DNA of 64,000 bases from a bacterium (GTDB lineage: Archaea; Thermoplasmatota; E2; JACPAO01; JAHFTW01). Shown in pieces: positions 3,766 to 64,000 of this stretch. A program made the translations under genes and the position numbers. How positions within the stretch are numbered: position 1 is the first letter of the stretch; every line of letters begins with the position of its first letter. The stretch spans positions 337,102 through 401,101 of the forward strand of contig JAZJZE010000001.1 in NCBI GenBank assembly GCA_040390065.1, written 5' to 3'. Under the pieces are notes generated by a model. That model was not told the origin of the DNA. It made no database searches and worked only from the letters and a program-made list of their open reading frames with translations.

Positions 3766-5384
3766 GTCGAGGCCTCCGCCGTGGCCTCGCGGGTCGGGGG
3801 CGACAGGGTGGGGGCCGGAATGGCGGCGGGCGAGTCGACGGGCAAGGCCGCCATCCCGGCAGCCACGCGCCAGGCGACGGCACGGCCGTGTGCCACGCGC
3901 TCAAGCACGCCTTCCTCTTCCAGCAGCCGCGCGTGGTACAGGACCAGCGGATGCGACGTCACGGCCAGCCCCTGTTCCGTCCAGCTTTGGCGCAACCCTG
4001 CGTAGTCGATGGGCAGGGCGGATTGTCGCACGCCATTGTAGATGCGGGCCCGGATTGGATTGTGCAGGAGCGCCATGGCTTCGAGGTTGGCGGGCGGCGG
4101 ATGCGCTCCACCGGCGTGCAGGAGTTCGGTCATGCCATCGAGCCGGCCGCCGATGGCTTTGGCTCGTTGCAGGACGCGTACATGGAAACGGGTGGTGCTC
4201 TTGCTGAGTCCCAGGTGGCGAGCCATGTCGCCGATGGAGGAGCCTGGCCGGCGCGCGACCTCGCGCAGGATCTCGGCGCGGGCCGGATGCGTGGTGGCGT
4301 TGCGGCGGTGCGCCACGGCCAGTGCGACGAGGGCGGGGCCGCGCAGGATGAGGGCGCCAAGCCCAACGCCCGCCAGGAGCGTGGCGCCCGTGGCCAGCGC
4401 ACTGCGGGAACCGAAGGCTGCGGCGCCGCCGACGCCCAGGTACGTCACGTTGCCAGCAAGGCTCCAATGGGAGGCCGTCTGCTCGTACGAGGCAGCGATG
4501 TGGAGGTCGCCGATCGCCTGGAACATGGCGGTGTCGGCGTCGTAGGATTGCGGTCCGATGTCGACCGCGCCCGTGACGCCCGTGAGCGCCATGTCGCCAA
4601 CGGCGCGGCCGTCGAGGCTCGCGACACAGTGCCGCCAGGTGCCGGCAAATGCTGCATTGGCGGCGCCCGCTTTGGCAATCGCGACGACTTCGTGCCGCAC
4701 GAGGCCGGGGCCGTCGTGGTTGGTGCCGGTCGTGGCAGCACCGGAAGACCATGCCATGGTCCCGCCGTGCAGAAGGACGGTGAGGCCACCGGAGGCTGAT
4801 GGGATGGCCGACGGACCAAGATCGGCGATGCCGCAGGCCCCGGCCGGCGTCGTCGCGGTGGCGTCGGTGTCTGGCAGGTAGCGGCCCTCCGTGAAGCCGG
4901 GCAGCGTGAATGGTTCGAGGCGCTGGTCGCCTTGGGCCTGCAGGGCGCCGACGTAAGGCGCCGACGACAGGAACGGTACGACGAGAAGGGTCGCAGGCAC
5001 GGCCGGAGTACCCTGCGGGAAGAAAGACAGGTTGGGCGCGTCGCCCTCCGCAAGGACGGTTGGTGTCAGGGGTACACTTGTCGACGGCGTCGTCGTCTCC
5101 AAGTAGTCGAAGCGCACGACGCGATAGTGCCAAGCACCCGATGCATCTAGGGCTTTGAGGCCGTCCCCGGCGCCGAGGAGAAGGCTGGCGCGCAGATGGG
5201 CTTCGCCGGAAACCTTGCCGTGCAGGGTCCACGAACCCGTCGCCACGACTTGGCCCTCCAGGTGCCCCGAATCGGCTGCGGCGGGGACCGGGGCGGCCAT
5301 CAGGGCGACCACGGCGAGGCATGCCCCCACGACAGCGAATGCGCCGGTCCGACCGTGCACGAGCTTCCCACCAAATCGAGGCAT
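3762..5384 (-). CDS. Membrane-tethered transcription regulator: signal/TM, ~330-aa extracytoplasmic domain, TM, cytoplasmic double winged-helix (ArsR/TrmB-like)
   Basis: ATG start. N-terminal hydrophobic AFAVVGACLAVVALMAAPVPAAA, second TM ATGATLLAGVGLGALIL followed by HRRN. HTH-like SIGDMARHLGLSKSTTRFHVRVLQRAKAI and a second wHTH-like unit (LVLYHARLLEEEGVLERV). Confidence 0.7.
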   Translation of the reverse strand: MPRFGGKLVHGRTGAFAVVGACLAVVALMAAPVPAAADSGHLEGQVVATGSWTLHGKVSGEAHLRASLLLGAGDGLKALDASGAWHYRVVRFDYLETTTPSTSVPLTPTVLAEGDAPNLSFFPQGTPAVPATLLVVPFLSSAPYVGALQAQGDQRLEPFTLPGFTEGRYLPDTDATATTPAGACGIADLGPSAIPSASGGLTVLLHGGTMAWSSGAATTGTNHDGPGLVRHEVVAIAKAGAANAAFAGTWRHCVASLDGRAVGDMALTGVTGAVDIGPQSYDADTAMFQAIGDLHIAASYEQTASHWSLAGNVTYLGVGGAAAFGSRSALATGATLLAGVGLGALILRGPALVALAVAHRRNATTHPARAEILREVARRPGSSIGDMARHLGLSKSTTRFHVRVLQRAKAIGGRLDGMTELLHAGGAHPPPANLEAMALLHNPIRARIYNGVRQSALPIDYAGLRQSWTEQGLAVTSHPLVLYHARLLEEEGVLERVAHGRAVAWRVAAGMAALPVDSPAAIPAPTLSPPTREATAEAST

Positions 5385-5518: not shown

Positions 5519-7453
5519 ATGCCACACTTCCCCGTGGGCCCCGCTTCCCGCTGCCCTTGCAGCTTCGGGCATGGACATGGTCCCGACAAACGTCAAGACC
5601 AGGGCCCGAATCGTCACCCTGTGGCTGTCCGCCTGGTGGTTGCATCCCTCGTCCTCTCGGCGGCCGTCGCGGGCGCTGCCCTTCCGGCCCCATCACCCTC
5701 GTTTGCCGGGGGGTCGGCGTACTCGCTGCACATCGTCTGCCCGACGTCGAGTGCCCTGCAGTTCAGCTCCTACTCGCGACCGACCTGTCCCGTCCGCATG
5801 GTGGATACGTCCGAGATGCTTGGCGACCCCGCCTTGGCCATCGACCCGATGGACGGCAACAACCTGGCCATGGCGATGATCCACGGTGCGGTCGACGGCG
5901 GCGGCCCCACGGTGCGCAGTCGCATCGGCCTGCCCTTTACGACGTTCACGTCCAACGACGCAGGTGCCACGTGGGACGACGCCTTTTACCAGTCGCCGCA
6001 GGACCTCGGCAACGCATACGGCGAGCATTCCGCTGCGGCCGTCGACCCGTACGGTCACGTCTACGTCGGTTCCACGTACGCGGTGGGCGAAAGGGGCGGC
6101 CCGTTCCGCTACACGATCGGCGCGCAGAAGTTCGACAGCGTCGAGCAGGTGCGGCAGAAGCAGACGGGTGCCGACGGCTCGTACAACCTCGTCTACGTCG
6201 ACCCGGTGTTCAAGGGCGGGAAGATCCGCCAGACGTGGTTCCTGTTCAACGCGGCCACGGACAACATGACCATGGTGTGGTTCGAGGACCGGGGCAACGC
6301 GCCGTCCGGGTCGGCCACGGTACCCGGCGACGCCCCGCAGGCGGATGCCGATTCCTTGGATGTCCTTCCCGGCTACGCAGCGCGTCGACTTGCGCCGCCG
6401 CCCCACTCGTCACCGCCAGCCAGCAGCGTGGCGCCGCGTGGAACGATCGGCATCGTGTGGACGGGCGTCGGTGACAACGACACGTATCGCCGCCAACCCG
6501 TCGAGTGGTCCATCGGGCCGTGCAGCGGTGCAACGAATCCGGTGCTCTTCGAAGGCTGGCTGTACGTCGGCTGCCAGGCCGACCCGAAGCAGGGGGCGTT
6601 CCCATGGCATCCGGAGACCCAGCCGGGCACGGTGGAGCTGTTTCGCATGGACCCCGACGGCGGCAAGCCCGTCTACATGGGGGCCAGTCCCATCGTTGGC
6701 GGCGCGCCAAAGCTGGGCGTGCGTTCGGATGGCCGGCTTGCCCTGTTGTCGGCCGGCGTCTCCTCGGCCAACGGCTTGGACCTCACTGGCGTCTTCGGGC
6801 ACTACTCCGACGGACGCATCGACTGGACTGGCGTGCACTCGTACTCGGACGGCGTCACTCCTCTGGCCCGCGATGAACGCATCCTGCGCGCCAACATCCA
6901 GGACGTCCTGTACCGCGAGTACTCGGGCGTCGTGCACCTCATCCTGCGCGAGACCATCGAACCGGTGGGCATCGACGCCGTGCAGAAATCCATCGGCCCC
7001 AAGATCCGCAAGTGCTTCGTCGCCTTGGACGAGGATGGCGTCCTGGCCGTGCACCGACTCGACATCGGCAACGTGCTCAACAAGACGGACCCGTTCCTGA
7101 ACTCGCAGCCCGAGATGGCCTACGAGGACTTGAGCGACGACATCGTGCAACTCCCCGCCGCGCCCTTCACGTACAACGGCAAGGACCTTGGCGACACGTA
7201 CCAGCGGGAATTCTTCGCCGTCGGCGACTACGGCGAGGCCATCTTCGCGGAGGTCGTGGAAGTGACCGACCTGCGCTTCGTCCCGCCCGTCCCCGTCATC
7301 GCGGCCGCCCCTGGCATCCCCGCAGCCGCCGCGTCCGGAACGAGCAGCGCGCTCGGAGCCGTCGTCGGCGTCACCACCGGGGCCCTGCTGTTGGCCATGA
7401 TCGCGGCGGGCCGAAAAACGGCGGTCGGCAGCATGGCGAAGATGCGCAAGTGA
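5519..7453 (+). CDS. BNR/Asp-box beta-propeller (sialidase-like fold) surface protein with C-terminal TM anchor
   Basis: Asp-box SNDAGATW. Signal-like VAVRLVVASLVLSAAVAGA (a GTG at 5621 is a plausible alternative start). C-terminal ALGAVVGVTTGALLLAMIAAGRK anchor. Confidence 0.7.
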   Translation: MPHFPVGPASRCPCSFGHGHGPDKRQDQGPNRHPVAVRLVVASLVLSAAVAGAALPAPSPSFAGGSAYSLHIVCPTSSALQFSSYSRPTCPVRMVDTSEMLGDPALAIDPMDGNNLAMAMIHGAVDGGGPTVRSRIGLPFTTFTSNDAGATWDDAFYQSPQDLGNAYGEHSAAAVDPYGHVYVGSTYAVGERGGPFRYTIGAQKFDSVEQVRQKQTGADGSYNLVYVDPVFKGGKIRQTWFLFNAATDNMTMVWFEDRGNAPSGSATVPGDAPQADADSLDVLPGYAARRLAPPPHSSPPASSVAPRGTIGIVWTGVGDNDTYRRQPVEWSIGPCSGATNPVLFEGWLYVGCQADPKQGAFPWHPETQPGTVELFRMDPDGGKPVYMGASPIVGGAPKLGVRSDGRLALLSAGVSSANGLDLTGVFGHYSDGRIDWTGVHSYSDGVTPLARDERILRANIQDVLYREYSGVVHLILRETIEPVGIDAVQKSIGPKIRKCFVALDEDGVLAVHRLDIGNVLNKTDPFLNSQPEMAYEDLSDDIVQLPAAPFTYNGKDLGDTYQREFFAVGDYGEAIFAEVVEVTDLRFVPPVPVIAAAPGIPAAAASGTSSALGAVVGVTTGALLLAMIAAGRKTAVGSMAKMRK

Positions 7454-8193: not shown

Positions 8194-8273
8194 GGGGGAA
8201 TGCCCGGGCGTGCTGCCAGCCACGCTCGGCCAAAGGGGAGCTCCACCATGAGGTTGACGCAACCTCGCGAGCC

Positions 8274-8631
8274 CGCAGCGTTCCTCGCCGCTTCGCGGCA
8301 TCGGCAAACCTGTCCTGGCACCTACGACGTGCTCGCTTCGCTCGCGGTCTCAGTGCACAGGACAGGATTTGGCGCTGCGGCCGCGCAGGCGCAGCCGCAG
8401 CGTTCCTCGCCGCTTCGCGGCATCGGCAAACCCTGCCCATGCACCTGTCTGTCGCCGGCGGGCGCTCGGCGCCGCCGATGCGACGCGACTTAGTGCACAG
8501 GACAGGATTTGGCGCTGCGGCCGCGCAGGCGCAGCCGCAGCGTTCCTCGCCGCTTCGCGGCATCGGCAAACCCTGCCCATGCACCTGTCTGTCGCCGGCG
8601 GGCGCTAGGCGCCGCCGATGCGACGCGACTT
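8274..8631. repeat. Tandem 140-bp repeat (2 full units plus a diverged partial unit), each unit ending in the 3' end of tRNA-Leu
   Basis: AGTGCACAGGACAGGATTT at 8352-8370, 8492-8510 and, in the real tRNA, 8632-8650. Units 8352-8491 and 8492-8631 are nearly identical by eye. Confidence 0.85.
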
Positions 8632-8633
8632 AG

Positions 8634-8715
8634 TGCACAGGACAGGATTTGAACCTGCGAACCACAAAGGAGAAGGCCCTGAACCTTCCGTCGTTGGCCA
8701 CTTGACTACCTGTGC
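8634..8715 (-). tRNA. tRNA-Leu (anticodon CAG), type II, no intron, no encoded CCA
   Basis: Manual cloverleaf: acceptor GCACAGG/CCTGTGC, D arm GTC..GAC, anticodon arm GAAGG-TTCAGGG-CCTTC, long variable arm, T arm GCAGG-TTCAAAT-CCTGT, discriminator A. Confidence 0.85.
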
Positions 8716-8792
8716 ATTTGGGGAAAAGGGCCAGCCCTTGCGGAGGGCTGCATCCGGCCGACTTCAGGTTGGCACTTGAGGGTTGCGCCCAG

Positions 8793-8910
8793 GCGAACCA
8801 CAAAGGGGAAGGCCGTAGCCCTCGGGCCATCAGGTCCGAGGGCGCGACGTGGACGCCGCGAAGCGGCGGCCCGGCCAACCTTCCGTCGTTGGCCACTTGA
8901 CTACCTGTGC
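8793..8910 (-). pseudogene. Truncated, disrupted copy of the tRNA-Leu 5' part
   Basis: The first 34 nt and the next 22 nt (1 mismatch) match the tRNA. The CAG triplet is replaced by a 62-nt two-hairpin insert (8815-8876). No T arm or 3' acceptor strand follows. Confidence 0.75.
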
Positions 8911-8950
8911 AGACGGTTGGGAAGAGGGGAGAAGTGGATTCCCTTGAACC

Positions 8951-30939: not shown

Positions 30940-32340
30940 CTACGCTTCGTCGACGGCGTCGCCAACGCGGCCGGCCGCGACGCCGCCACCGCCCATCTGC
31001 GCGCCCGTCTTCGAGGTCTTCACGAAGACGCGCGGCTTGCGCAGCACGAACTCATCGAAGAACGCTGCCCAGGCGACGATGCTCAGCATGGTGTAATACA
31101 CGGGGAGGAAGGGCAGGGCGGCCACTTCGCGCCATTCGTGGCGGACACCGTCGATGGCATCGCGCACCATCATCGTGGCCCAGGACACAAACGGCGCCAC
31201 GGCGGCCGCCGTCCAGATCCAAGTCCATTGCGACGGCAAGGCCCCCACGTCGTACCCGAAGCGCCCAAGGATGCCAAGCGGCAGCAGCAGGATCAGCGCC
31301 ATCGGGATGAAGACGTATACGAACGTGAGGTACAGGTCGAGGCGCGGCAGGGCACGCACGCGCAGGCGATGGATGCGCGGCAAGTAGTGGGCTGCAACCT
31401 GGAACCAGCCGCGCGCCCAGCGCTTGCGTTGCGCCCACCAGGCCGCAAGGCGGGCGGGGTTCTCCTCGTGGGTCTGGATGCCCGGGTCGACGCGCAGGCG
31501 GCCGCCGCTGGCGTGGATGCGCACCGAGTAGTCGATGTCCTCGACGAGCTGCTCCTCCGAGTAGCCGCCGACGCGGTCGAACACCGACCGCCGGAAGAAC
31601 ACCTGGCCACCGCCGAAGAACGTGAAGCCGGAGGCCAGCTGTCGGGCGTAGATGTCGCCGCGTTCCAGGATGTCGCGCTCGATGCGCATCATGAGCGCCA
31701 GGGGCGATTCGCGGCCGTTCAGCCCAATGGCGCGTCCCTTGATGCAGTCGAGCTTCGGGTCGGCGAGGAACCAGCGGGCGGCGCGCTGCACGGCGTCGGG
31801 CTTGAGGACTTGGTCGGCGTCGAGGCCAACGAGGATGTCGCCGTGGCACTGCGCCACACCGTCGTTGAAGGCAGCGGACTTGCCCGGCCGGCCGCCGGAG
31901 CGCTCGAACACGCGGAAGCGCGGGTCGCGTTCGGCCTGGTCGCGAAGGAGTTGCTGCGTGCCGTCGTTCGAGCGCGATTCGCAGACGTACAGGAACTCGA
32001 TGCGGTCACGCGGATAGTCGACGTGGGCGAGGGCCGCCATGGACCGCGGCAGGACGTTGGCCTCGTTGTACGTGGGGATGAGGATGGTGACGCGCGGCCA
32101 TTCGGCGCCGTCGGGCTTGGCGGGCGGTTCCGGGTTGCGGCGCAGCCCCGCGATGCACGAGCCGTAGGTCCGCACGAGGGGGAACGCCATGAGGGCCACG
32201 AGGACCACGCCGACCACGGCGAAGTAGTGGGGCACGAAGAAGCCGGGGACGAGCAGCAGGAGCGTGCAAGCCAGCATGGCGAGCGTGGTGGCGACGATCT
32301 CGCCCCAGTCCGGGCGGTCGCGGTGCAGGCTCACTTCCAT
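30940..32340 (-). CDS. Membrane-embedded family-2 glycosyltransferase, processive beta-glycan synthase type
   Basis: ATG at 32340 (MEVSLHRD..). N-terminal TMs. Motifs LDADQ (DxD), VEDIDYS (ED), QRKRWARG (QxxRW). C-terminal TM bundle. Confidence 0.85.
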   Translation of the reverse strand: MEVSLHRDRPDWGEIVATTLAMLACTLLLLVPGFFVPHYFAVVGVVLVALMAFPLVRTYGSCIAGLRRNPEPPAKPDGAEWPRVTILIPTYNEANVLPRSMAALAHVDYPRDRIEFLYVCESRSNDGTQQLLRDQAERDPRFRVFERSGGRPGKSAAFNDGVAQCHGDILVGLDADQVLKPDAVQRAARWFLADPKLDCIKGRAIGLNGRESPLALMMRIERDILERGDIYARQLASGFTFFGGGQVFFRRSVFDRVGGYSEEQLVEDIDYSVRIHASGGRLRVDPGIQTHEENPARLAAWWAQRKRWARGWFQVAAHYLPRIHRLRVRALPRLDLYLTFVYVFIPMALILLLPLGILGRFGYDVGALPSQWTWIWTAAAVAPFVSWATMMVRDAIDGVRHEWREVAALPFLPVYYTMLSIVAWAAFFDEFVLRKPRVFVKTSKTGAQMGGGGVAAGRVGDAVDEA

Positions 32341-33761
32341 GGCATGGCCTCTTCGAGGATGGACTCCGCCCGGACGGGCGCGACGGCGGGGGCGGCGGGC
32401 AAGGCGGGCTCCGCGCCGGTTTTGGACGTCTTCACGTACACCGGCTTCGTCCGCAGCACGAACTCGTCGAGGAAGGCGCTTGCGAACACGGCGCCCTGCA
32501 GGACAAGGTAGGGCCAAAGGAGCGGCACGGCCAACCACTCGACGGCCGCGTGCTTCACGCCGTCGCGCCGGTCGTGCCACCACATGCCGATCCAGGCCAC
32601 GGTGGGCATCGCCGCGAAGAAGATGCCGCCGAAGGTCTCGACGGCTTGCGGGAAGAACGTGCGGACGTGGATGCCGAGGAAGGGCATGATGACGAACGGC
32701 AGCGTCATCAGCAGCACGACCGGCAGGAGCGAGAACGCGAGGTTGTAGAACAGGTCGGCGCGCATGCCAAGCGGTGCGCGGTTCATGGTCGACAGGTGCG
32801 GCAGGTAGCGCTCCACCAGTTGCATGCCGCCGCGCGTCCAGCGCGTGCGCTGCGCCCACCACGCCGACCAGTTGGCCGGGTGCTCCTCATGGCTAATCAC
32901 GAACGGGTCGACGACAAGGCGGTAGCCGGCCTGGTGGATGCGCACCGAGAAGTCGATGTCCTCGATCAGGACCTCCTCGTCGAAGCGGCCGATCTGCTCG
33001 AACAGGCTGCGGCGGAAGAACGCCTGGCCGCCGCCGAAGAACGTGAAGCCGCCGACGACCTCGCGGAAGTAGGTCTCGCCGCGCTCGACGACGTCGCGTT
33101 CGAGCGTCGTGCACAGGGCCAGCGTCGACTCCGTCGCGTTCACGGCCATGGGGCGACCCTTCACGCAGGCGATGTTCGGGTCCGACAGGAACCAGCGCAC
33201 GGCGCGCTCGATGGCGTCCGGCTTGAGGGCGTGGTCCGCGTCCAAGGAGACCAGGATTTCGCCCGTGCAGTGGTCGAGGCCGAAGTTGCACGCCGCCGCC
33301 TTGCCGCCGCGCTTGTCGTTTCGTTCGACCGGCACGATGCGCGCGTCGCGTTCGGCAAAGGAGCGGATGATCGCGGCCGTCGCGTCGGTGCTGCGCTTCT
33401 CGTAGACGTACACGAACTCGATGCGGTCGCGGGGGTAGCGCACATGCTCCATCGCAGCCATCGTGCGTGGCAGGACCGCCGCCTCGTTGTAGGCGACGAT
33501 GAGGACGGACACGGTCGGCCACTCGATGCCGTCGGGCTTTGCCGGGGGGTCCACGGGGCGTCGACCGGTCAGGATCGTGGCCGCCAGGGTGCGCACGCCG
33601 AGGATGGCCAGGCCGACGAAGCCGGCGGTGGCAAGCACGCGGAAGTAGCCGTCGACGTACAGGCCGGGGGCGAGGGCCAGGAGGAGCAGGCCGAGGCCGA
33701 TGCCGAGCTTGCGCGCCACGTCGCGTGGCCGTGCGCGCCTGCCCGACAGCTTGACCTCCAT
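32331..33761 (-). CDS. Membrane-embedded family-2 glycosyltransferase, processive type (paralogue of 30940..32340)
   Basis: ATG at 33761 (MEVKLSGRR..). Motifs LDADH, IEDIDFS, QRTRWTRG. 10-nt overlap with the downstream paralogue. Confidence 0.85.
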   Translation of the reverse strand: MEVKLSGRRARPRDVARKLGIGLGLLLLALAPGLYVDGYFRVLATAGFVGLAILGVRTLAATILTGRRPVDPPAKPDGIEWPTVSVLIVAYNEAAVLPRTMAAMEHVRYPRDRIEFVYVYEKRSTDATAAIIRSFAERDARIVPVERNDKRGGKAAACNFGLDHCTGEILVSLDADHALKPDAIERAVRWFLSDPNIACVKGRPMAVNATESTLALCTTLERDVVERGETYFREVVGGFTFFGGGQAFFRRSLFEQIGRFDEEVLIEDIDFSVRIHQAGYRLVVDPFVISHEEHPANWSAWWAQRTRWTRGGMQLVERYLPHLSTMNRAPLGMRADLFYNLAFSLLPVVLLMTLPFVIMPFLGIHVRTFFPQAVETFGGIFFAAMPTVAWIGMWWHDRRDGVKHAAVEWLAVPLLWPYLVLQGAVFASAFLDEFVLRTKPVYVKTSKTGAEPALPAAPAVAPVRAESILEEAMPWK

Positions 33762-33860
33762 CGCATTGTCTCCCGGGCAGGCCCCACCGGACCCGCCGCA
33801 CCCTCGCACGACCTCCCCACATTCATGAAGGTATGGGTTGACTTCCTTCCTGGGGCGAGG

Positions 33861-33866
33861 AAAAAA
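33861..33866 (-). terminator. T6 run 14 nt downstream of the 33880..35640 stop codon
   Basis: GGAAAAAAGG on the plus strand. Archaeal oligo-T terminator-like. Confidence 0.3.
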
Positions 33867-33879
33867 GGCGGCGTTGCGG

Positions 33880-35640
33880 CTACCGGTGGTAGGCCGCGTC
33901 GAAGTCCTTGCGGGCCGTTGCATCCTTCAGGATGGTCGCGGCGTAGACGTCGGATCCGGCCAGCCGGCCCGCCTCGCCCGTGTGCCGTGTGTCCGCCCAG
34001 AAGACCGTGGCCGATTCCTTGCTCGTGTCCAGCCCGATGTAGTCGCCGATGAAGGGCGCGCCGCTCTGGTGGTGGCCGAGGTCGCCATCGAACGAGCGCT
34101 CCGTCACGCGCACGTTGGGGTGGAAACTGTCGCCGCCGTTGTCCGAATAGGCGTAGTACACGTCGAGCAGGCGGTTGTCCGGCGAGTTGCGCCGGTCGTA
34201 CCACGCGACGTGCACCCCGCCCAGCGGGTCGACGTCGACCCAGGGCACGAATTGGTCGCCCTTCTCCGTGTCGCTGACGCGCACCGGTGCACTCCAGGCC
34301 ATGCCATCGTCGGAGTGCCGCATCATGAGCTGCACGTCCGTGTTGACGCGCCCGGTCTGCTCGGCGTAGACGACGTAGCGCCGGCCATCGTGGGCCCCGC
34401 CGGATGTATCGATGGCGAGCACCGGGTACGTGGCGACGCGGAAATGGCTGGGTCCGGTTCCGTCGCGCGGGCCGACGCTTGGGTCGGACTTGATGGGCGA
34501 GATGGTGAACGTCGACATGACGGGGGCGAAAACGGTGCCGCCGGGTGTGACCGTCCCTTCCGTGTACGACAGTTGGTCGCCGTTCGGGTGGACGCCCACG
34601 GGCAGGGTTCCGTCGGTGTCGGCCGCCCAGATGACAGCGACGCGCGGCATGCCGCCGGGACCGTTGGGCAGATACTGCGGCATGGAGAATTGCGAATCGA
34701 GGCCGCTCGACGTGCCGGGGGCGAACGTGTGCTGCGGGCCCCAGGTCTTGCCACCGTCCATGCTCTCGCAATAACTGATGACGCTCGTCGACTGCGCGAG
34801 CAGGCCGGTCGGGTCGGGGACGCCGCTGGGCAGCGGCGGCGTCGAGTAGTACGGTGTCCACGTCACGATCGCATGGTCGCCGCCCGGCTGCAACGCGAAC
34901 CACTGCTTGTCATTGAATTGGATGCCGTTGTCGCCGACACCGCAGAACGAGATGGCGCCGAAGGTCTTGCCGCCGTCCGTGCTGGTTGCGAAGTAGATCT
35001 GTGTTGCCGTGGTGGCGTCCGTCGACCCCGGATAGACCGGGTTGGGCTGGCTCGGAACCTGACCGGCATGCGCACCGCCGTAGTTGAGGCCCGAGAACAC
35101 GAAGGTGCCATCGTCGTCGAACGCCACGACCGGGTCCGTGTTGCAGGTGTTTCCAGAGATGGCGCTTGGACGCTTGTCGCCGGGGAAGCCAGGCATGAGG
35201 TCGTCGTTCCACGTCAGGCCGCCGTCCAGGCTGGAGAACGTGCCCATCCACACGTTGTATTTCCCGCAACCTGCGCCGCCCCCGAGGTAGGAGACCGTGT
35301 AGTCCTTCGCGCCGCCCGCGACGTTGAGCGGGTTCGTCGGATTCACGGCGACGGACACCTCGTTGCCCGGCCCATGCTGCGTCGTCCAGTCCATCGTGTG
35401 GTTGTCGACGAGCGGATGCGTCACGCGATGGTTGCACTCGTCGATGCCGGCCTGCGACGCCGCCGCCCCGATGCGGTAGCCGGCATTGCACAGGAAGATG
35501 GTGTACGGTGCGGCGCCCGCCAGGTCGGAGTCGGTCGCCGTCGGGGGCAACGCCGGCCCCGTGTCGTCGCTGCCGCCGAAACAGCCGGCCAGCAAGGGGA
35601 CCAGAAACGCCGCCAGGGCAAGTGCGGGCTTTGCCTTCAT
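33880..35640 (-). CDS. BNR/Asp-box beta-propeller lipoprotein (sialidase/glycosidase-like fold)
   Basis: MKAKPALALAAFLVPLLAGC lipobox. Asp-boxes SLDGGLTW, STDGGKTF, SMDGGKTW, HSDDGMAW, SDNGGDSF. Confidence 0.8.
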   Translation of the reverse strand: MKAKPALALAAFLVPLLAGCFGGSDDTGPALPPTATDSDLAGAAPYTIFLCNAGYRIGAAASQAGIDECNHRVTHPLVDNHTMDWTTQHGPGNEVSVAVNPTNPLNVAGGAKDYTVSYLGGGAGCGKYNVWMGTFSSLDGGLTWNDDLMPGFPGDKRPSAISGNTCNTDPVVAFDDDGTFVFSGLNYGGAHAGQVPSQPNPVYPGSTDATTATQIYFATSTDGGKTFGAISFCGVGDNGIQFNDKQWFALQPGGDHAIVTWTPYYSTPPLPSGVPDPTGLLAQSTSVISYCESMDGGKTWGPQHTFAPGTSSGLDSQFSMPQYLPNGPGGMPRVAVIWAADTDGTLPVGVHPNGDQLSYTEGTVTPGGTVFAPVMSTFTISPIKSDPSVGPRDGTGPSHFRVATYPVLAIDTSGGAHDGRRYVVYAEQTGRVNTDVQLMMRHSDDGMAWSAPVRVSDTEKGDQFVPWVDVDPLGGVHVAWYDRRNSPDNRLLDVYYAYSDNGGDSFHPNVRVTERSFDGDLGHHQSGAPFIGDYIGLDTSKESATVFWADTRHTGEAGRLAGSDVYAATILKDATARKDFDAAYHR

Positions 35641-43807: not shown

Positions 43808-43808
43808 G

Positions 43809-43891
43809 CGCCGAGGGCAGGATTTGAACCTGCAAATCCAGGGGACACTGGTTTTCGAGACCAGCGCAATACCGGGTTATGCGACCTCGGC
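43809..43891 (-). tRNA. tRNA-Ser (anticodon CGA), type II
   Basis: Manual cloverleaf: acceptor GCCGAGG/CCTCGGC, anticodon arm CTGGT-CTCGAAA-ACCAG, variable arm, T arm GCAGG-TTCAAAT-CCTGC, discriminator G. Confidence 0.88.
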
Positions 43892-44308
43892 AGGTAAGTC
43901 GGCCGACTTGTGGCCGCTATTTCCAGGTTTCGTGCCGTGCGAGCGCGACGCGCGAGCCATCAGGGGGTCGCGGGGGGCGGTAAGCCCCCCCGCAGGTCCG
44001 CGGGGCCGCAGGCCCCGCTGCCCAAATGATCGACCTGTTTGCAGGTCGAGGGACACTGGTTTTCGAGACCAGCGCAATACCGGGTTATGCGACCTCGGCA
44101 GGTAAGTCGGCCGACTTGTGGCCGCTATTTCCAGGTTTCGTGCCGTGCGAGCGCGACGCGCGAGCCATCAGGGGGTCGCGGGGGGCGGTAAGCCCCCCCG
44201 CAGGTCCGCGGGGCCGCAGGCCCCGCTGCCCAAATGATCGACCTGTTTGCAGGTCGAGGGACACTGGTTTTCGAGACCAGCGCAATACCGGGTCATGCGA
44301 CCTCGGCA
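43842..44308. repeat. Tandem 208-bp repeat (2 full units plus a truncated third), each carrying the first 50 nt of tRNA-Ser plus a 158-nt hairpin-rich spacer
   Basis: Units 43842-44049 and 44050-44257 are identical by eye. The third copy ends ~44308 with one substitution (44294). The ORF track shows the same 66-aa peptide twice (43877..44077, 44085..44285). Confidence 0.9.
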
Positions 44309-44340
44309 GAAGGGCGCTGGGGCGGAGGCCAGGGCTCGCC

Positions 44341-51776: not shown

Positions 51777-52016
51777 GCATTTCGCAGAATCCCTTCGGTC
51801 CGTCATCCATCTGGATGCCTCGCAGATTGACCAAACCGGGAAAAAACAATCCGTGGAATCTGCTCCCAGTCCGCGCCATTGCAAGACGTGCAAGAGCTCA
51901 CCAGGGGGATACCTGAGATCTCGGGGGAATCTGTGGATTGGTGGCGGGTACTCCGCAACGAGCGCACCAAGGCCTGTTCGACGGCGTTCAGGAACGTCGG
52001 CTGCCTCGGCTCTCCC

Positions 52017-52412
52017 ATGACCCGCTCGCGGCCGCAAGACTCGCCTGAGACGCAGACCATCCTCCAAGCCGCAGTCGGCATCCACAACTGGCTCGGCGGC
52101 GGCCACCCGTGGGCAGCGTACCGCGAAGCGTTGGCATGCGAGTTCGCGCTGCGCGCCATCCCGTTCTGGCGCGAGCCGTTTCGTCCCGGCCACGCCGTCG
52201 ACTTCCTCTGCTCTCCGGGAATCGTCGTGGACGTGCAGCGCGACGTGGACGACGGCCGCGAACGCGACGTGCACGAGGTGCTGCAGGAGACCGGCCTGGC
52301 GTTCGGGCTTCGCCTGGATTTCGCGGGCCCATGCCTCGAAGTGCACCAGATCTGCCTCCGTCACGGGCCCAACCTGGTTTTTCAACGGCCGGCGCCCTCG
52401 GCCGCGTCGTGA
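52017..52412 (+). CDS. Hypothetical protein inserted in the r-protein operon; weak DUF559/Vsr-like endonuclease resemblance
   Basis: ATG 52017. High third-position GC. Its stop overlaps the rnp1 GTG start (GTGA). The segment AIPFWREPFRPGHAVDFLCSPGIVVDVQRD..RDVHEVLQETGL loosely recalls the DUF559 core. Confidence 0.4.
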   Translation: MTRSRPQDSPETQTILQAAVGIHNWLGGGHPWAAYREALACEFALRAIPFWREPFRPGHAVDFLCSPGIVVDVQRDVDDGRERDVHEVLQETGLAFGLRLDFAGPCLEVHQICLRHGPNLVFQRPAPSAAS

Positions 52413-61944: not shown

Positions 61945-63537
61945 ATGGCAGACACGGAGAAACGCAGTTCCCTCTACGCACTGGAGCCCCTCATCAAGAG
62001 GTGGCCTGCGGTCACGAAGCCTGAGGGTCACGTCTCGTTCAAGACGAAGCTCCTCTGGACGACCATTTGTCTCCTGCTGTACTTCGCGCTGTCGAACATC
62101 CCGCTCTTCGGGGTGTCGAACCAGCAGCTCGACATCTTTGCGAGCTTCCGCGCCGTCTTGGCCGGCCAGTCCGGCACTTTGATGCACCTGGGCATCGGCC
62201 CCATCGTCACCGGGTCCATCGTGATGCAGCTCTTCACGGGCGCCAAGATCATCAAGCTCGACCTCACGAAGGACGAGGACAAGGCGATCTACCAGGGCGC
62301 CCAGAAGATCATGGTCCTGCTGTTCATCTTCATCGAAGCCATCCCGCAAGTGTACGGCTTCCTCAACCCGGACCCGAAGTTCATCTCCTGGTTTGGCAGC
62401 CACAACATCGGCGGCGGCGAGGCCTGGTCCCGCAGTGTCATCATCGCGCAGTTGGCTCTCGGCGCCATCATCGTCTTCCTGATGGACGAACTCATCTCCA
62501 AGTGGGGTATCGGTTCGGGCATTTCGCTCTTCATCGCGGCCGGTGTGAGCCAGTCGCTGTTCCAAGGCACCTTGTCTTGGCAGCCGTCGAACGCGGGCCT
62601 TGGCAACCACTACAACCCCATCACGAACCCGCCCGTCGGGGCCATTCCCATGGCGGGATACGTGTTCTGGAACCGTGACTTGCAAAGCATGGTGCATGGG
62701 CAAGGCTTCGAGAACGTCTTCATCGGCGGCGGCAACTTCCCCAACCCACTCATCGCCTTCTTCGGCACGATCATGATCTTCATGTTCGTGGTCTACGCGG
62801 AAGCAAGCCGCATCGAGTTGCCCCTCGCGCACGGCAAGGTCCGCGGCGCCCGCGGCCGCTACCCGCTGCGCCTCATCTACGCCTCGAACATCCCGGTCAT
62901 CCTGATGGCCGCGCTGCTCGCGAACATCAACATCTTCAGCCTGCTTCTCTGGCAGCACCCAACGTTCAGTCACATCCCCGGCATCGGCCACTCCTGGTGG
63001 GTCGGCACGTACGAGACCGGCGGCGGCTCGACGCAGCCCATCGCCGGCGGCGCCTGGTACCTGCAGCAGTTCCGAGGATTGTCCGATTGGTTCCTGCCCC
63101 TGTTCGACCCGCGCTACAGTGGGCTTGCCCACGGCCACGTGTGGTGGCAGATCCTCATCAAGATCACGTTGTTCCTGGGCCTCTTCATCGGCGGCTCCAT
63201 CATGTTCGCCAAGTTCTGGGTCGACACGACGAACATGGGCCCCCATGACGTGGCCAAGCAGATCGAGAAATCCGGCATGCAGATTCCCGGCTTCCGCCGT
63301 GACCCGCGCGTGCTGGAGAAGGTCCTCGAACGCTACATTCCAACTCTTACCATCATCGGTGGTGCGACGGTCGGTGCTCTGGCAGCCGTTGCCGACATGA
63401 TCGGTACCGTCGGCCAGGCGTCCGGTACTGGATTGCTGCTCTGCGTCGGCATTTTCATGAGGATGTACGAGCAGATTGCGAAGGAACAGGTCATGGAAAT
63501 GCACCCCGTGCTCCGTGGCTTCTTCGGCGCGGAATAG
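61945..63537 (+). CDS. secY: Preprotein translocase subunit SecY
   Basis: 530 aa, 10-TM pattern, LLWTTICLLLYFALSNIPLFGV.. Follows rpl15 as in all prokaryotic spc-type operons. Confidence 0.95.
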   Translation: MADTEKRSSLYALEPLIKRWPAVTKPEGHVSFKTKLLWTTICLLLYFALSNIPLFGVSNQQLDIFASFRAVLAGQSGTLMHLGIGPIVTGSIVMQLFTGAKIIKLDLTKDEDKAIYQGAQKIMVLLFIFIEAIPQVYGFLNPDPKFISWFGSHNIGGGEAWSRSVIIAQLALGAIIVFLMDELISKWGIGSGISLFIAAGVSQSLFQGTLSWQPSNAGLGNHYNPITNPPVGAIPMAGYVFWNRDLQSMVHGQGFENVFIGGGNFPNPLIAFFGTIMIFMFVVYAEASRIELPLAHGKVRGARGRYPLRLIYASNIPVILMAALLANINIFSLLLWQHPTFSHIPGIGHSWWVGTYETGGGSTQPIAGGAWYLQQFRGLSDWFLPLFDPRYSGLAHGHVWWQILIKITLFLGLFIGGSIMFAKFWVDTTNMGPHDVAKQIEKSGMQIPGFRRDPRVLEKVLERYIPTLTIIGGATVGALAAVADMIGTVGQASGTGLLLCVGIFMRMYEQIAKEQVMEMHPVLRGFFGAE

Positions 63538-63917
63538 CGCGCAGCGCGTTCCGCCGACGGGAGCCGGAGCCGGGCGCATCCAGGCCAGGTTCCCGCAATG
63601 TGCTCGCAGCGAGGCCCGCAGGGCCGAGCGGACCTACGGCTGCGCCTCAGCGCGGCCGTAGGGCACGAAGGGCGACGCCGCAGCGTCGCCCGACAGCAGA
63701 TTGCGAAGGAACAGGTCATGGAGATGCATCCGGTTCTGCGCGGCTTCTTCGGGGCCGAATAGCGCGCAGCGCTTCGGCCTTCGAAGGCCGTGCAGAACAG
63801 CGCGCCCGAGCGATGCGAAGCGAGCGTGGGCAAGCGGACCCTGCGGTTGCGCTTCAGCGCGACCGCAGGGGTGGCGAGCGACGCCGCAGCGTCGCGAGCC
63901 GTGCTCCGTGGCTTCAC
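63470..63917 (+). repeat. Re-copied secY 3' end: second 78-bp copy at 63695-63772, third 17-bp fragment at 63899-63915, separated by related hairpin-rich spacers
   Basis: Copy 2 encodes the same 21 residues plus stop as the secY C-terminus, with 8 third-position differences. Spacer hairpins at 63633-63662 / 63839-63870 and 63671-63690 / 63878-63895. Confidence 0.85.
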
Positions 63918-64000
63918 CCGACCCTGCGCAACATTCAGGAAAGCCCGGGTTGGTCAGGCGAAACCTTGTCGGCCCTCAACGTCGGCCAGCCCCGCCGCTC

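Follow-up and report, generated by a model that had tools for sequence, protein, structure and literature searches.

Tandem untranslated copies of secY and tRNA gene ends, spaced by a covarying hairpin module, in uncultured Thermoplasmatota

The DNA analysed here is a 64,000-nt stretch of contig JAZJZE010000001.1 (hereafter the window), which ends at position 64000 and carries at its right edge an array of short repeats behind secY, the final gene of a ribosomal-protein cluster. The similarity of its SecY protein assigns the window to uncultured Thermoplasmatota. As listed in Table 1, the gene is followed by two untranslated copies of its own 3' end, here called echoes, each preceded by a spacer rich in hairpins. 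A preliminary description of this DNA had reported a 78-nt direct repeat, and repeat search recovered it: the gene-attached copy and echo 1 are 90% identical over 78 nt, at a spacing of 225 nt. Codon-by-codon comparison returned the same eight codon pairs as had been listed there. Eight of the 22 codons differ, always at the third position and always synonymously (gene copy against echo 1: A/G, C/T, C/G, G/T, C/G, T/C, C/G, G/C), and both copies encode QIAKEQVMEMHPVLRGFFGAE followed by a stop. Third positions thus differ at 8/22 sites, and first and second positions at 0/44. When eight substitutions were placed at random in this pair, none of 200,000 placements was entirely synonymous. The third-position difference lies within the range of 0.2-0.5 found along the secY gene body between species. 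Echo 2 consists of the 17-nt sequence CCGTGCTCCGTGGCTTC, which also occurs at 63506-63522 in the gene. The two occurrences are 100% identical, and echo 2 agrees with the gene-attached copy and not with echo 1, as had been described.

Table 1. Positions of the secY array, its hairpin modules and the two tRNA arrays in the window
Feature	Position	Strand	Basis
secY (530 aa), final gene of ribosomal-protein cluster	61945-63537	+	Open reading frame (ORF); 79-91% identity to SecY of Thermoplasmatota metagenome-assembled genomes
Gene-attached repeat copy: final 22 codons, stop and 10 nt	63470-63547	+	Repeat search, codon comparison
Inverted copy of the secY segment at the repeat start	63593-63608	+	Reverse complement TGCGAGCACATTGCGG against gene TACGAGCAGATTGCGA, 13/16
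Small hairpin GGCCC-GCA-GGGCC, first part of module, unit 1	63613-63625	+	Read from sequence; GAA/GCA-loop equivalents in all units
GAGCGGAC motif and large hairpin 1 (13 bp, loop TCAG), unit 1	63626-63666	+	Fold, covariation
Hairpin 2 (GCGACGC-CGCA-GCGTCGC), unit 1	63672-63689	+	Repeat search, fold
Echo 1: full untranslated secY-end copy	63695-63772	+	Repeat search, codon comparison
Unit 2 module: AAGCGGAC and large hairpin 1' (14 bp, 63839-63870)	63819-63873	+	Covariance-model match, 66.6 bits; fold
Hairpin 2, unit 2	63878-63895	+	Repeat search, fold
Echo 2: core-only copy (17 nt), codons P-V-L-R-G-F; then unique sequence	63899-63915	+	Repeat search
Probable 3' end of convergent gene (...PDQPGLS*), array boundary	63935-64000	-	Translation; GC-rich third positions judged by eye
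tRNA-Leu(CAG) array; tRNA 3' end twice more downstream, period 140	8349-8659	-	Repeat search; module before each echo
tRNA-Ser(CGA) array; tRNA 5' half (~50 nt) three times, period 208	43842-44309	-	Repeat search; diverged module read from sequence

Each spacer ends in a module composed, in this order, of a small hairpin whose loop is GAA or GCA, the motif G(C)GGAC and a large hairpin. The following echo starts 1-5 nt past the large hairpin or, in the window, past the additional hairpin 2. A covariance model of the module matched unit 1 at 63613-63666 with 63 bits. The large hairpin of unit 1 (63633-63645/63650-63662, 13 bp) folds with -27.8 kcal/mol (z = -4.65) and that of unit 2 (63839-63852/63857-63870, 14 bp) with -31.0 kcal/mol (z = -5.67). 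Their alignment showed the compensated differences reported earlier, an A-T pair replaced by G-C, a C-G pair replaced by T-A, and one additional pair. Hairpin 2, GCGACGCCGCAGCGTCGC, which had been said to be conserved between the two spacers, is identical in both and folds with -19.6 and -15.7 kcal/mol. It is missing from the related locus L029 (L numbers designate the related Thermoplasmatota loci used for comparison) and is therefore specific to the lineage of the window. The factual observations made on this sequence in the preliminary description were thus all confirmed.

The compensation noted between the two window spacers holds across nine aligned spacer sequences (both window units, L001, L003, L004, L005, L027, L028 and one tRNA-Leu unit). 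Of the cells that make up the 13-bp stem in this alignment, 89% are paired, and 9 of the 13 pairs have changed on both sides. None of 500 shuffles reached any of the measures, and slid controls were 33-47% paired. U.G pairs recur in the stem and the sense-strand fold is better by 3-4.5 kcal/mol, which indicates a structure formed by the sense strand, either as RNA or as single-stranded DNA. These data indicate that the large hairpin is under structural selection. The hairpins of the sense strand, we guess, probably have a further role in the transcript, such as insulating or stabilising its 3' end. Within the ~318 kb searched, covariance-model matches were limited to secY flanks and tRNA-Leu arrays, and a dispersed repeat of the miniature inverted-repeat transposable element (MITE) or repetitive extragenic palindromic (REP) kind was rejected for this reason. 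L003 and L027 have the module and no echo. No Rfam family reached its gathering threshold (best score 23.7 bits against a gathering score of 70).

The spacers, both in the window (63538-63900) and at all related loci, are moreover dense in tiny hairpins with three-base GAA or GCA loops closed by C-G (GCGAAGC, CGCGCAGCGCG, GGCCCGCAGGGCC and GCCGCGAAGCGGC, for example). Such loops are unusually stable in single-stranded DNA. A division of the spacers into a type A and a type B by global identity was dropped, as all spacer pairs are 74-86% identical in this GC-rich sequence.

Echoes of the secY end were found about 100-150 nt 3' of the gene in five further assemblies, L029, L001, L004, L028 and L005, and the echo-bearing assemblies come from different projects and assemblers. 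L029, whose SecY is 91% identical to that of the window, has one full and one partial echo, and the L005 contig stops exactly at the echo start. A peptide scan of all loci showed that echoes are confined to these genomes and that a long insert never separates successive copies. About half of the close relatives (L002, L003, L006-L008, L024, L027, L030 and L031) are echo-free. The differences between gene and echo were synonymous in 8/8 cases in the window, 6/6 in L004, 5/5 in L028 and 1/1 in L001 by codon comparison, and in 11/11 cases in L029 as read from the alignment. Over these five genomes there are ~31 gene-echo differences, with no non-synonymous change and no insertion or deletion inside the echoes. 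The probability that all differences are synonymous by chance ranges from 2e-4 down to <5e-6 per pair, and a simple tandem duplication with neutral decay does not account for this pattern. The SecY C-terminus itself is unchanged in all echo-bearing genomes.

Echo 1 of the window and the L029 echo differ from each other at six sites, again all synonymous; the echoes of the two genomes agree at 63/69 positions and the gene ends at 57/69. A static echo beside a gene that alone drifts was ruled out, since the echoes of different genomes also differ mutually, and only synonymously. Taken together, these comparisons support a derivation of the downstream copies from secY ends that evolved under protein-level selection, as had been suggested for the second copy in the window. 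Comparison with the gene ends of relatives, which the preliminary description had advised, pointed the same way. The partial echo of L001 and L029, ATGCTCCGTGGC..., starts with ATG CTC CGT, and the corresponding Pro-Met-Leu-Arg is the functional gene end of L007. It is thus an allele marker rather than a junction artefact.

The extent of the echoes varies. Some run from E508, V515 or (M)L522 through to the end, one kind starts at E508 and stops at R523, and one comprises nothing but P-V-L-R-G-F. The overlap common to all echoes of all genomes is a core of ~15 nt, the P-V-L-R-G-F codons. Taken modulo 3, the gene-to-echo offset is 0 for the window as well as for L001, and 2 for L029, L004 and L028. 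In the window, echo 1 lies in the secY frame with TAG as the sole intervening stop (63538-63696); read-through would append 75 residues, and the hypothetical product would end in a second SecY C-terminus. Read-through or frameshifting into the echo was dropped as a conserved feature because L029, L004 and L028 have the other frame. Along secY, the divergence between the window and L029 increases towards the 3' end of the gene.

The spacer directly behind secY also contains, in inverted orientation, a copy of the secY segment with which the repeat starts (Table 1). The inverted copy was found in these spacers in the window, L029, L004 and L005, at spacer nt 50-71, just 5' of the module, and 13-15 of its 16 nt agree with the gene-attached copy. 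It tracks the synonymous codons of each lineage (CAG-ATT-GCG, CAA-ATC-GCG, CAG-ATT-GCA-AAA and CAG-ATC-GCC). In shuffle tests, 0/500 shuffles did as well for L005, 5/500 for L029 and 14/500 for L004. An equivalent 9-bp complement is present in the tRNA-Leu units of L032 (shuffles 3-5/500). Spacers of a second type are without the inverted copy. The inverted copy may serve in a long-range helix of the 3' untranslated region, may pair with the next echo in a stem closing the module, may guide insertion, or may be the trace of template switching.

An occupied and an empty site could be compared in the sister genomes L004, which has an echo, and L030, which has none. L030 has neither spacer nor hairpin module, and its secY stop and the start of the following gene overlap (7366-7372). 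Between -1000 and -563 the two secY genes differ at 2/437 nt; towards the stop they differ at 13/363, then 12/131 and finally 6/69. A recombination change-point was located at -563, with 7/997 differences on its upstream side and 31/563 between it and the stop (Fisher P = 8e-9). With L002 as outgroup, the gene-attached tail of L004 was the outlier at six of the seven informative sites in the final 76 nt, and L030 at one. The L004 echo retains the native state at all three informative sites in its span. The inverted copy in the L004 spacer fits the imported codons GCA AAA, so that tail, flank, inverted copy and module must have travelled as one block. These results support the view that in L004 a new tail and spacer were placed at the repeat boundary and that the old end now lies downstream. 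The preliminary description had proposed an integrating element that brings a replacement end and displaces the native one. The displacement is thus borne out by this pair; the element is not, as neither an element body nor an integrase was found between or beside the copies in the six genomes.

Both tRNA genes of the window carry arrays of the same kind. In the tRNA-Leu array the 3' end of the tRNA is echoed at 8489-8519 and 8349-8379, the distal copy differing by 1 nt, and the covariance model matched at 8370-8421 and 8510-8561 with 56 bits. A 38-nt spacer block occurs three times there (8273, 8395 and 8535, in the region 8273-8911), and the first 35 nt of the tRNA recur upstream at 8877-8911, adjoining a variable-arm-like fragment at 8796-8815. 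The sequence CGAGCGAAGCGAGC was seen 3' of the gene end at secY (L001, L002, L028) and also at the distal tRNA-Leu echo of the window. In the tRNA-Ser array (region 43808-44309) the proximal two units show 100% identity to each other, and a single T-to-C change sets the distal copy apart. Every tRNA-Ser unit includes sequence resembling the native upstream, promoter-like region, as well as GC-rich hairpins. Identical proximal copies and a differing distal one are what insertion would produce if it displaced the original copy to the distal position. In L032, a sister genome from the same European Nucleotide Archive sample as L029, the tRNA-Leu array is conserved; at 4844-5250 it has three echoes at spacings of 88, 115 and 120, and the stem of its large hairpin has covaried (CCCCGAGGC...GGCCTTGGGG).

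The region behind secY differs among close relatives in other respects. The genes between secY and a conserved pair encoding an HNH-like protein and a ClC channel vary, which marks a variable spot. A small conserved gene (motif AHC..H..VTTRKGAKTF, no Pfam match) lies behind secY in L030, L002, L003 and L027, and in L030 it is this gene whose start overlaps the secY stop. The preliminary description had remarked that adk does not follow secY, which is correct but not anomalous, as adk is absent behind secY in all relatives examined. A different repeat family was seen 3' of secY in L008 (3851-4100), with CGCGGATT/AATCCGCG palindromes that form a very long hairpin. Elsewhere in the window, an ORF within the ribosomal-protein cluster (51879-52412) gave a weak match to a PD-(D/E)XK nuclease (22 bits, barely at the Pfam cutoff), and two adjacent paralogous family-2 glycosyltransferase genes lie at 30940-33923, where repeats 1421 nt apart are 72-77% identical.

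The arrangement at secY resembles that of integrated elements in several ways. Direct repeats of the target gene end flank inserted DNA and the gene is intact, as in an attL-element-attR arrangement, and a close relative (L030 against L004) has an empty site. The units are flanked by att-like copies and are without recombination or transfer genes, as in cis-mobilizable elements (CIMEs). The spacers are 100-157 nt long and non-coding. No integrase, transposase, Cas1, PolB or reverse transcriptase was found among 30 ORFs drawn from the neighbourhood of the arrays, from the whole window and from relatives, and no recombinase among the called genes of L029-L031. An integrase or element body, which had been looked for on the strength of the preliminary description, was absent from the window and from the surroundings of the arrays in relatives. 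In ~340 kb of related loci no autonomous element sharing the att site was found. The virus and plasmid collections IMG/VR, INPHARED and PLSDB, queried with the SecY C-terminus, a degenerate hairpin pattern, two tRNA-array junction sequences and a blastn of the array, yielded no free, viral or plasmid counterpart, though the elements of this clade may be unsampled. A literature search for secY as an integration site returned nothing relevant.

Three known kinds of system were rejected. A diversity-generating retroelement was discarded because the substitutions are not adenine-specific and no reverse transcriptase domain was found. An integron cassette array was discarded because the hairpin is flanked by GAGCGGAC rather than by a GTTRRRY box and no integrase was found. 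A casposon does not fit because there is no Cas1 or PolB, the repeats are 17-78 nt long, and the inverted copy is internal, not terminal.

The explanation that we favour, and to which we give about even credence, is that cargo-less cassettes of ~200 bp insert by recombination at the gene end, supply a replacement for it, displace the old end and pass between lineages. The DNA behind secY would then be a stack of non-coding cassettes of ~190-225 bp. Each would start with a working copy of the secY end (final 10-23 codons and stop) together with a short 3' flank, and end with the small hairpin, the GGAC motif and the large hairpin. Entry would occur by recombination between the secY-like segment of the cassette and the resident secY end (Campbell-type insertion), either by homologous recombination or by a recombinase encoded elsewhere. 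The incoming copy would become the translated secY end and the previous end an untranslated downstream echo, and repeated insertion would produce several stacked ends. The same process would operate at tRNA-Leu and tRNA-Ser. Each echo would have been part of a functional secY until recently, in its own or a related lineage, which would explain why the copies differ only at synonymous sites. We infer that the ~200-bp unit may be mobile as such, perhaps by way of a circular intermediate, and that an enzyme would act on it. A more far-reaching form of this proposal makes the cassettes new non-autonomous archaeal mobile elements, self-replacing at the ends of essential genes (secY, tRNAs) and directed by pairing, with the inverted copy serving as guide or synapsis for a recombinase or nuclease supplied in trans. 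We regard this form as quite unlikely.

Several points weigh against the cassette explanation. In six genomes there is no element body between or beside the copies and no recombinase at any array, and the virus and plasmid collections are silent, with the reservation made above. A 200-bp circle is stiff and would be an unusual substrate for recombination. The window and L029 share a three-copy layout (gene, spacer, full echo, spacer, partial echo), so that the array could be old and vertically inherited, in which case the echoes would need selection of their own. The two flavours of spacer are told apart by BLAST and by landmark motifs, and global identity fails to separate them. Finally, the L004 echo has three private synonymous changes, and L004 and L030 are both mosaic over the final 563 nt of secY, which indicates that ordinary homologous exchange of larger fragments is also active.

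The units could instead be scars of kilobase integrative elements, proviruses or plasmids, that used the secY end and the tRNAs for attachment. The copies would represent their attL and attR, and the spacers the element ends that outlasted deletion of the cargo, much as in cis-mobilizable remnants. Archaeal elements classically attach at tRNA genes and at the 3' ends of protein genes, and are known to re-use a site in tandem. The echo boundaries cluster in the ~15-nt P-V-L-R-G-F core, and the 17-nt echo 2 resembles a bare core joined to unrelated DNA that leaves the window. We nevertheless consider such scars unlikely. No pair of copies in the six genomes encloses more than ~150 nt or has an integrase nearby, and independent deletion to the same structured remnant of ~200 bp, in every lineage and at three loci, would be improbable. 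Structural selection on the module and the lack of any match in IMG/VR, INPHARED and PLSDB also speak against decayed remnants. The layout common to the window and L029 could alternatively be explained by an old, hairpin-promoted slippage duplication of the secY end and its native flank, inherited vertically, with the echoes maintained by gene conversion or by a function of their own (pairing in a 3' untranslated structure, or a short translated peptide). The greater likeness of the window and L029 echoes than of their gene ends, with synonymous differences only, would fit this, as would the ability of the spacer inverted copy to pair with the repeat start, the identical tRNA units that a fresh duplication yields, and the in-frame position of the window echo behind a lone TAG. 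Such a duplication is, however, quite unlikely in our judgement. The extent of the echo varies by genome, so that no common peptide or pairing partner is preserved, and the frame between gene and echo is not conserved. Conversion that removed non-synonymous changes would also have removed the third-position differences of 36-48%. The P-M-L-R marker and the import in L004 further indicate foreign alleles.

Ordinary homologous exchange of larger fragments between species, with the secY end anchoring a variable island on its left and the echo as no more than a second homology arm through which an existing array spreads, and with no dedicated mobile unit, leaves unexplained the origin of the first duplication, the presence of the same module and layout at tRNA-Leu and tRNA-Ser, and the start of the imported L004 block at the repeat boundary. 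It would be in line with the change-point in L004 and L030 (563 nt, P = 8e-9, with mosaic patches in both), with the differing genes behind secY in close relatives, and with the climb in window-L029 divergence towards the 3' end of the gene. On balance it appears very unlikely as the whole explanation. An assembly artefact that strung together the alleles of two strains at one locus had been named in the preliminary description as the alternative to be checked. Contigs do tend to break here, as L005 ends at the echo start and L027 and L028 are short contigs. The units are, however, unequal in length and joined through unique junction sequence, and the junctions are common to the window and L029. 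The same architecture in six independent assemblies, from different projects and assemblers, excludes the co-assembly of strains, and an artefact of this kind is extremely improbable.

ICESt1 and ICESt3, two integrative and conjugative elements (ICEs), integrate at the fda gene and bring a replacement end. CIMEs, known together with streptococcal accretion arrays, are decayed kilobase ICEs and occur alongside related ICEs with the same att site. The secY and tRNA units resemble CIMEs in being att-flanked, devoid of recombination genes and piled up behind a housekeeping gene, at its 3' end; they differ in that CIMEs have kilobase size and parent ICEs, whereas no parent element was seen here. 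CIMEs and accretion arrays are mentioned in PMC7563491. Integrated elements of archaea use the 3'-distal parts of protein genes and stack in tandem (PMC6563490). Integration at gene 3' ends, end replacement and tandem stacking are in fact established for archaeal and bacterial integrative elements, which are kilobases long and encode their own recombinase (PMC6563490, PMC8371274, PMC9897764). The thaumarchaeal integrated mobile genetic elements (PMC6563490) and ICESt1/ICESt3 share with the present arrays the direct repeat of the gene end, the displaced old end, the intact gene, the tandem re-use of the site and the empty site in a relative. They are kilobases long and have an integrase, whereas the secY units are ~200 bp, non-coding and end in a hairpin module.

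Archaeal viruses and plasmids that integrate leave partial tRNA copies beside an intact gene (PMC9897764, PMC8371274). These are likewise near-identical repeats, but they enclose 9-23 kb of foreign DNA, whereas the copies in the window are 109-156 nt apart and in tandem. Integron cassettes with their attC sites are also tandem units, each closed by an imperfect hairpin with stronger conservation of structure than of sequence. Here, in contrast, there is no IntI, attI or GTTRRRY box, and what the units carry is the end of the neighbouring gene, not unrelated ORFs. Casposons inserted at EF-2 or tRNA 3' ends (PMC6563490, PMC4779613) are similar in being archaeal, including Thermoplasmatota, in targeting gene 3' ends, in standing in tandem and in their short target duplication. 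They have terminal inverted repeats, a duplication of 14-15 bp, Cas1 and PolB, none of which is present in the secY and tRNA arrays. A non-coding unit of ~200 bp with a covarying module, located at secY and at tRNAs and containing an inverted copy complementary to the target, was not found in the literature searched, and we do not assign the arrays to any named family.

The arrays break metagenomic contigs and can yield false partial tRNA calls. Under the cassette explanation, the hairpin module and the target-complementary inverted copy would offer handles in the search for the enzyme and the targeting rule. If this explanation is true, the ends of the essential, highly conserved secY and of tRNA genes would have been repeatedly swapped by tiny non-coding units in this clade of uncultured Thermoplasmatota. 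This would represent a minimal form of site-directed insertion, made harmless because each unit carries its own replacement gene end. The arrays would also mark a hot spot of recombination on the border of a variable island in the genome.

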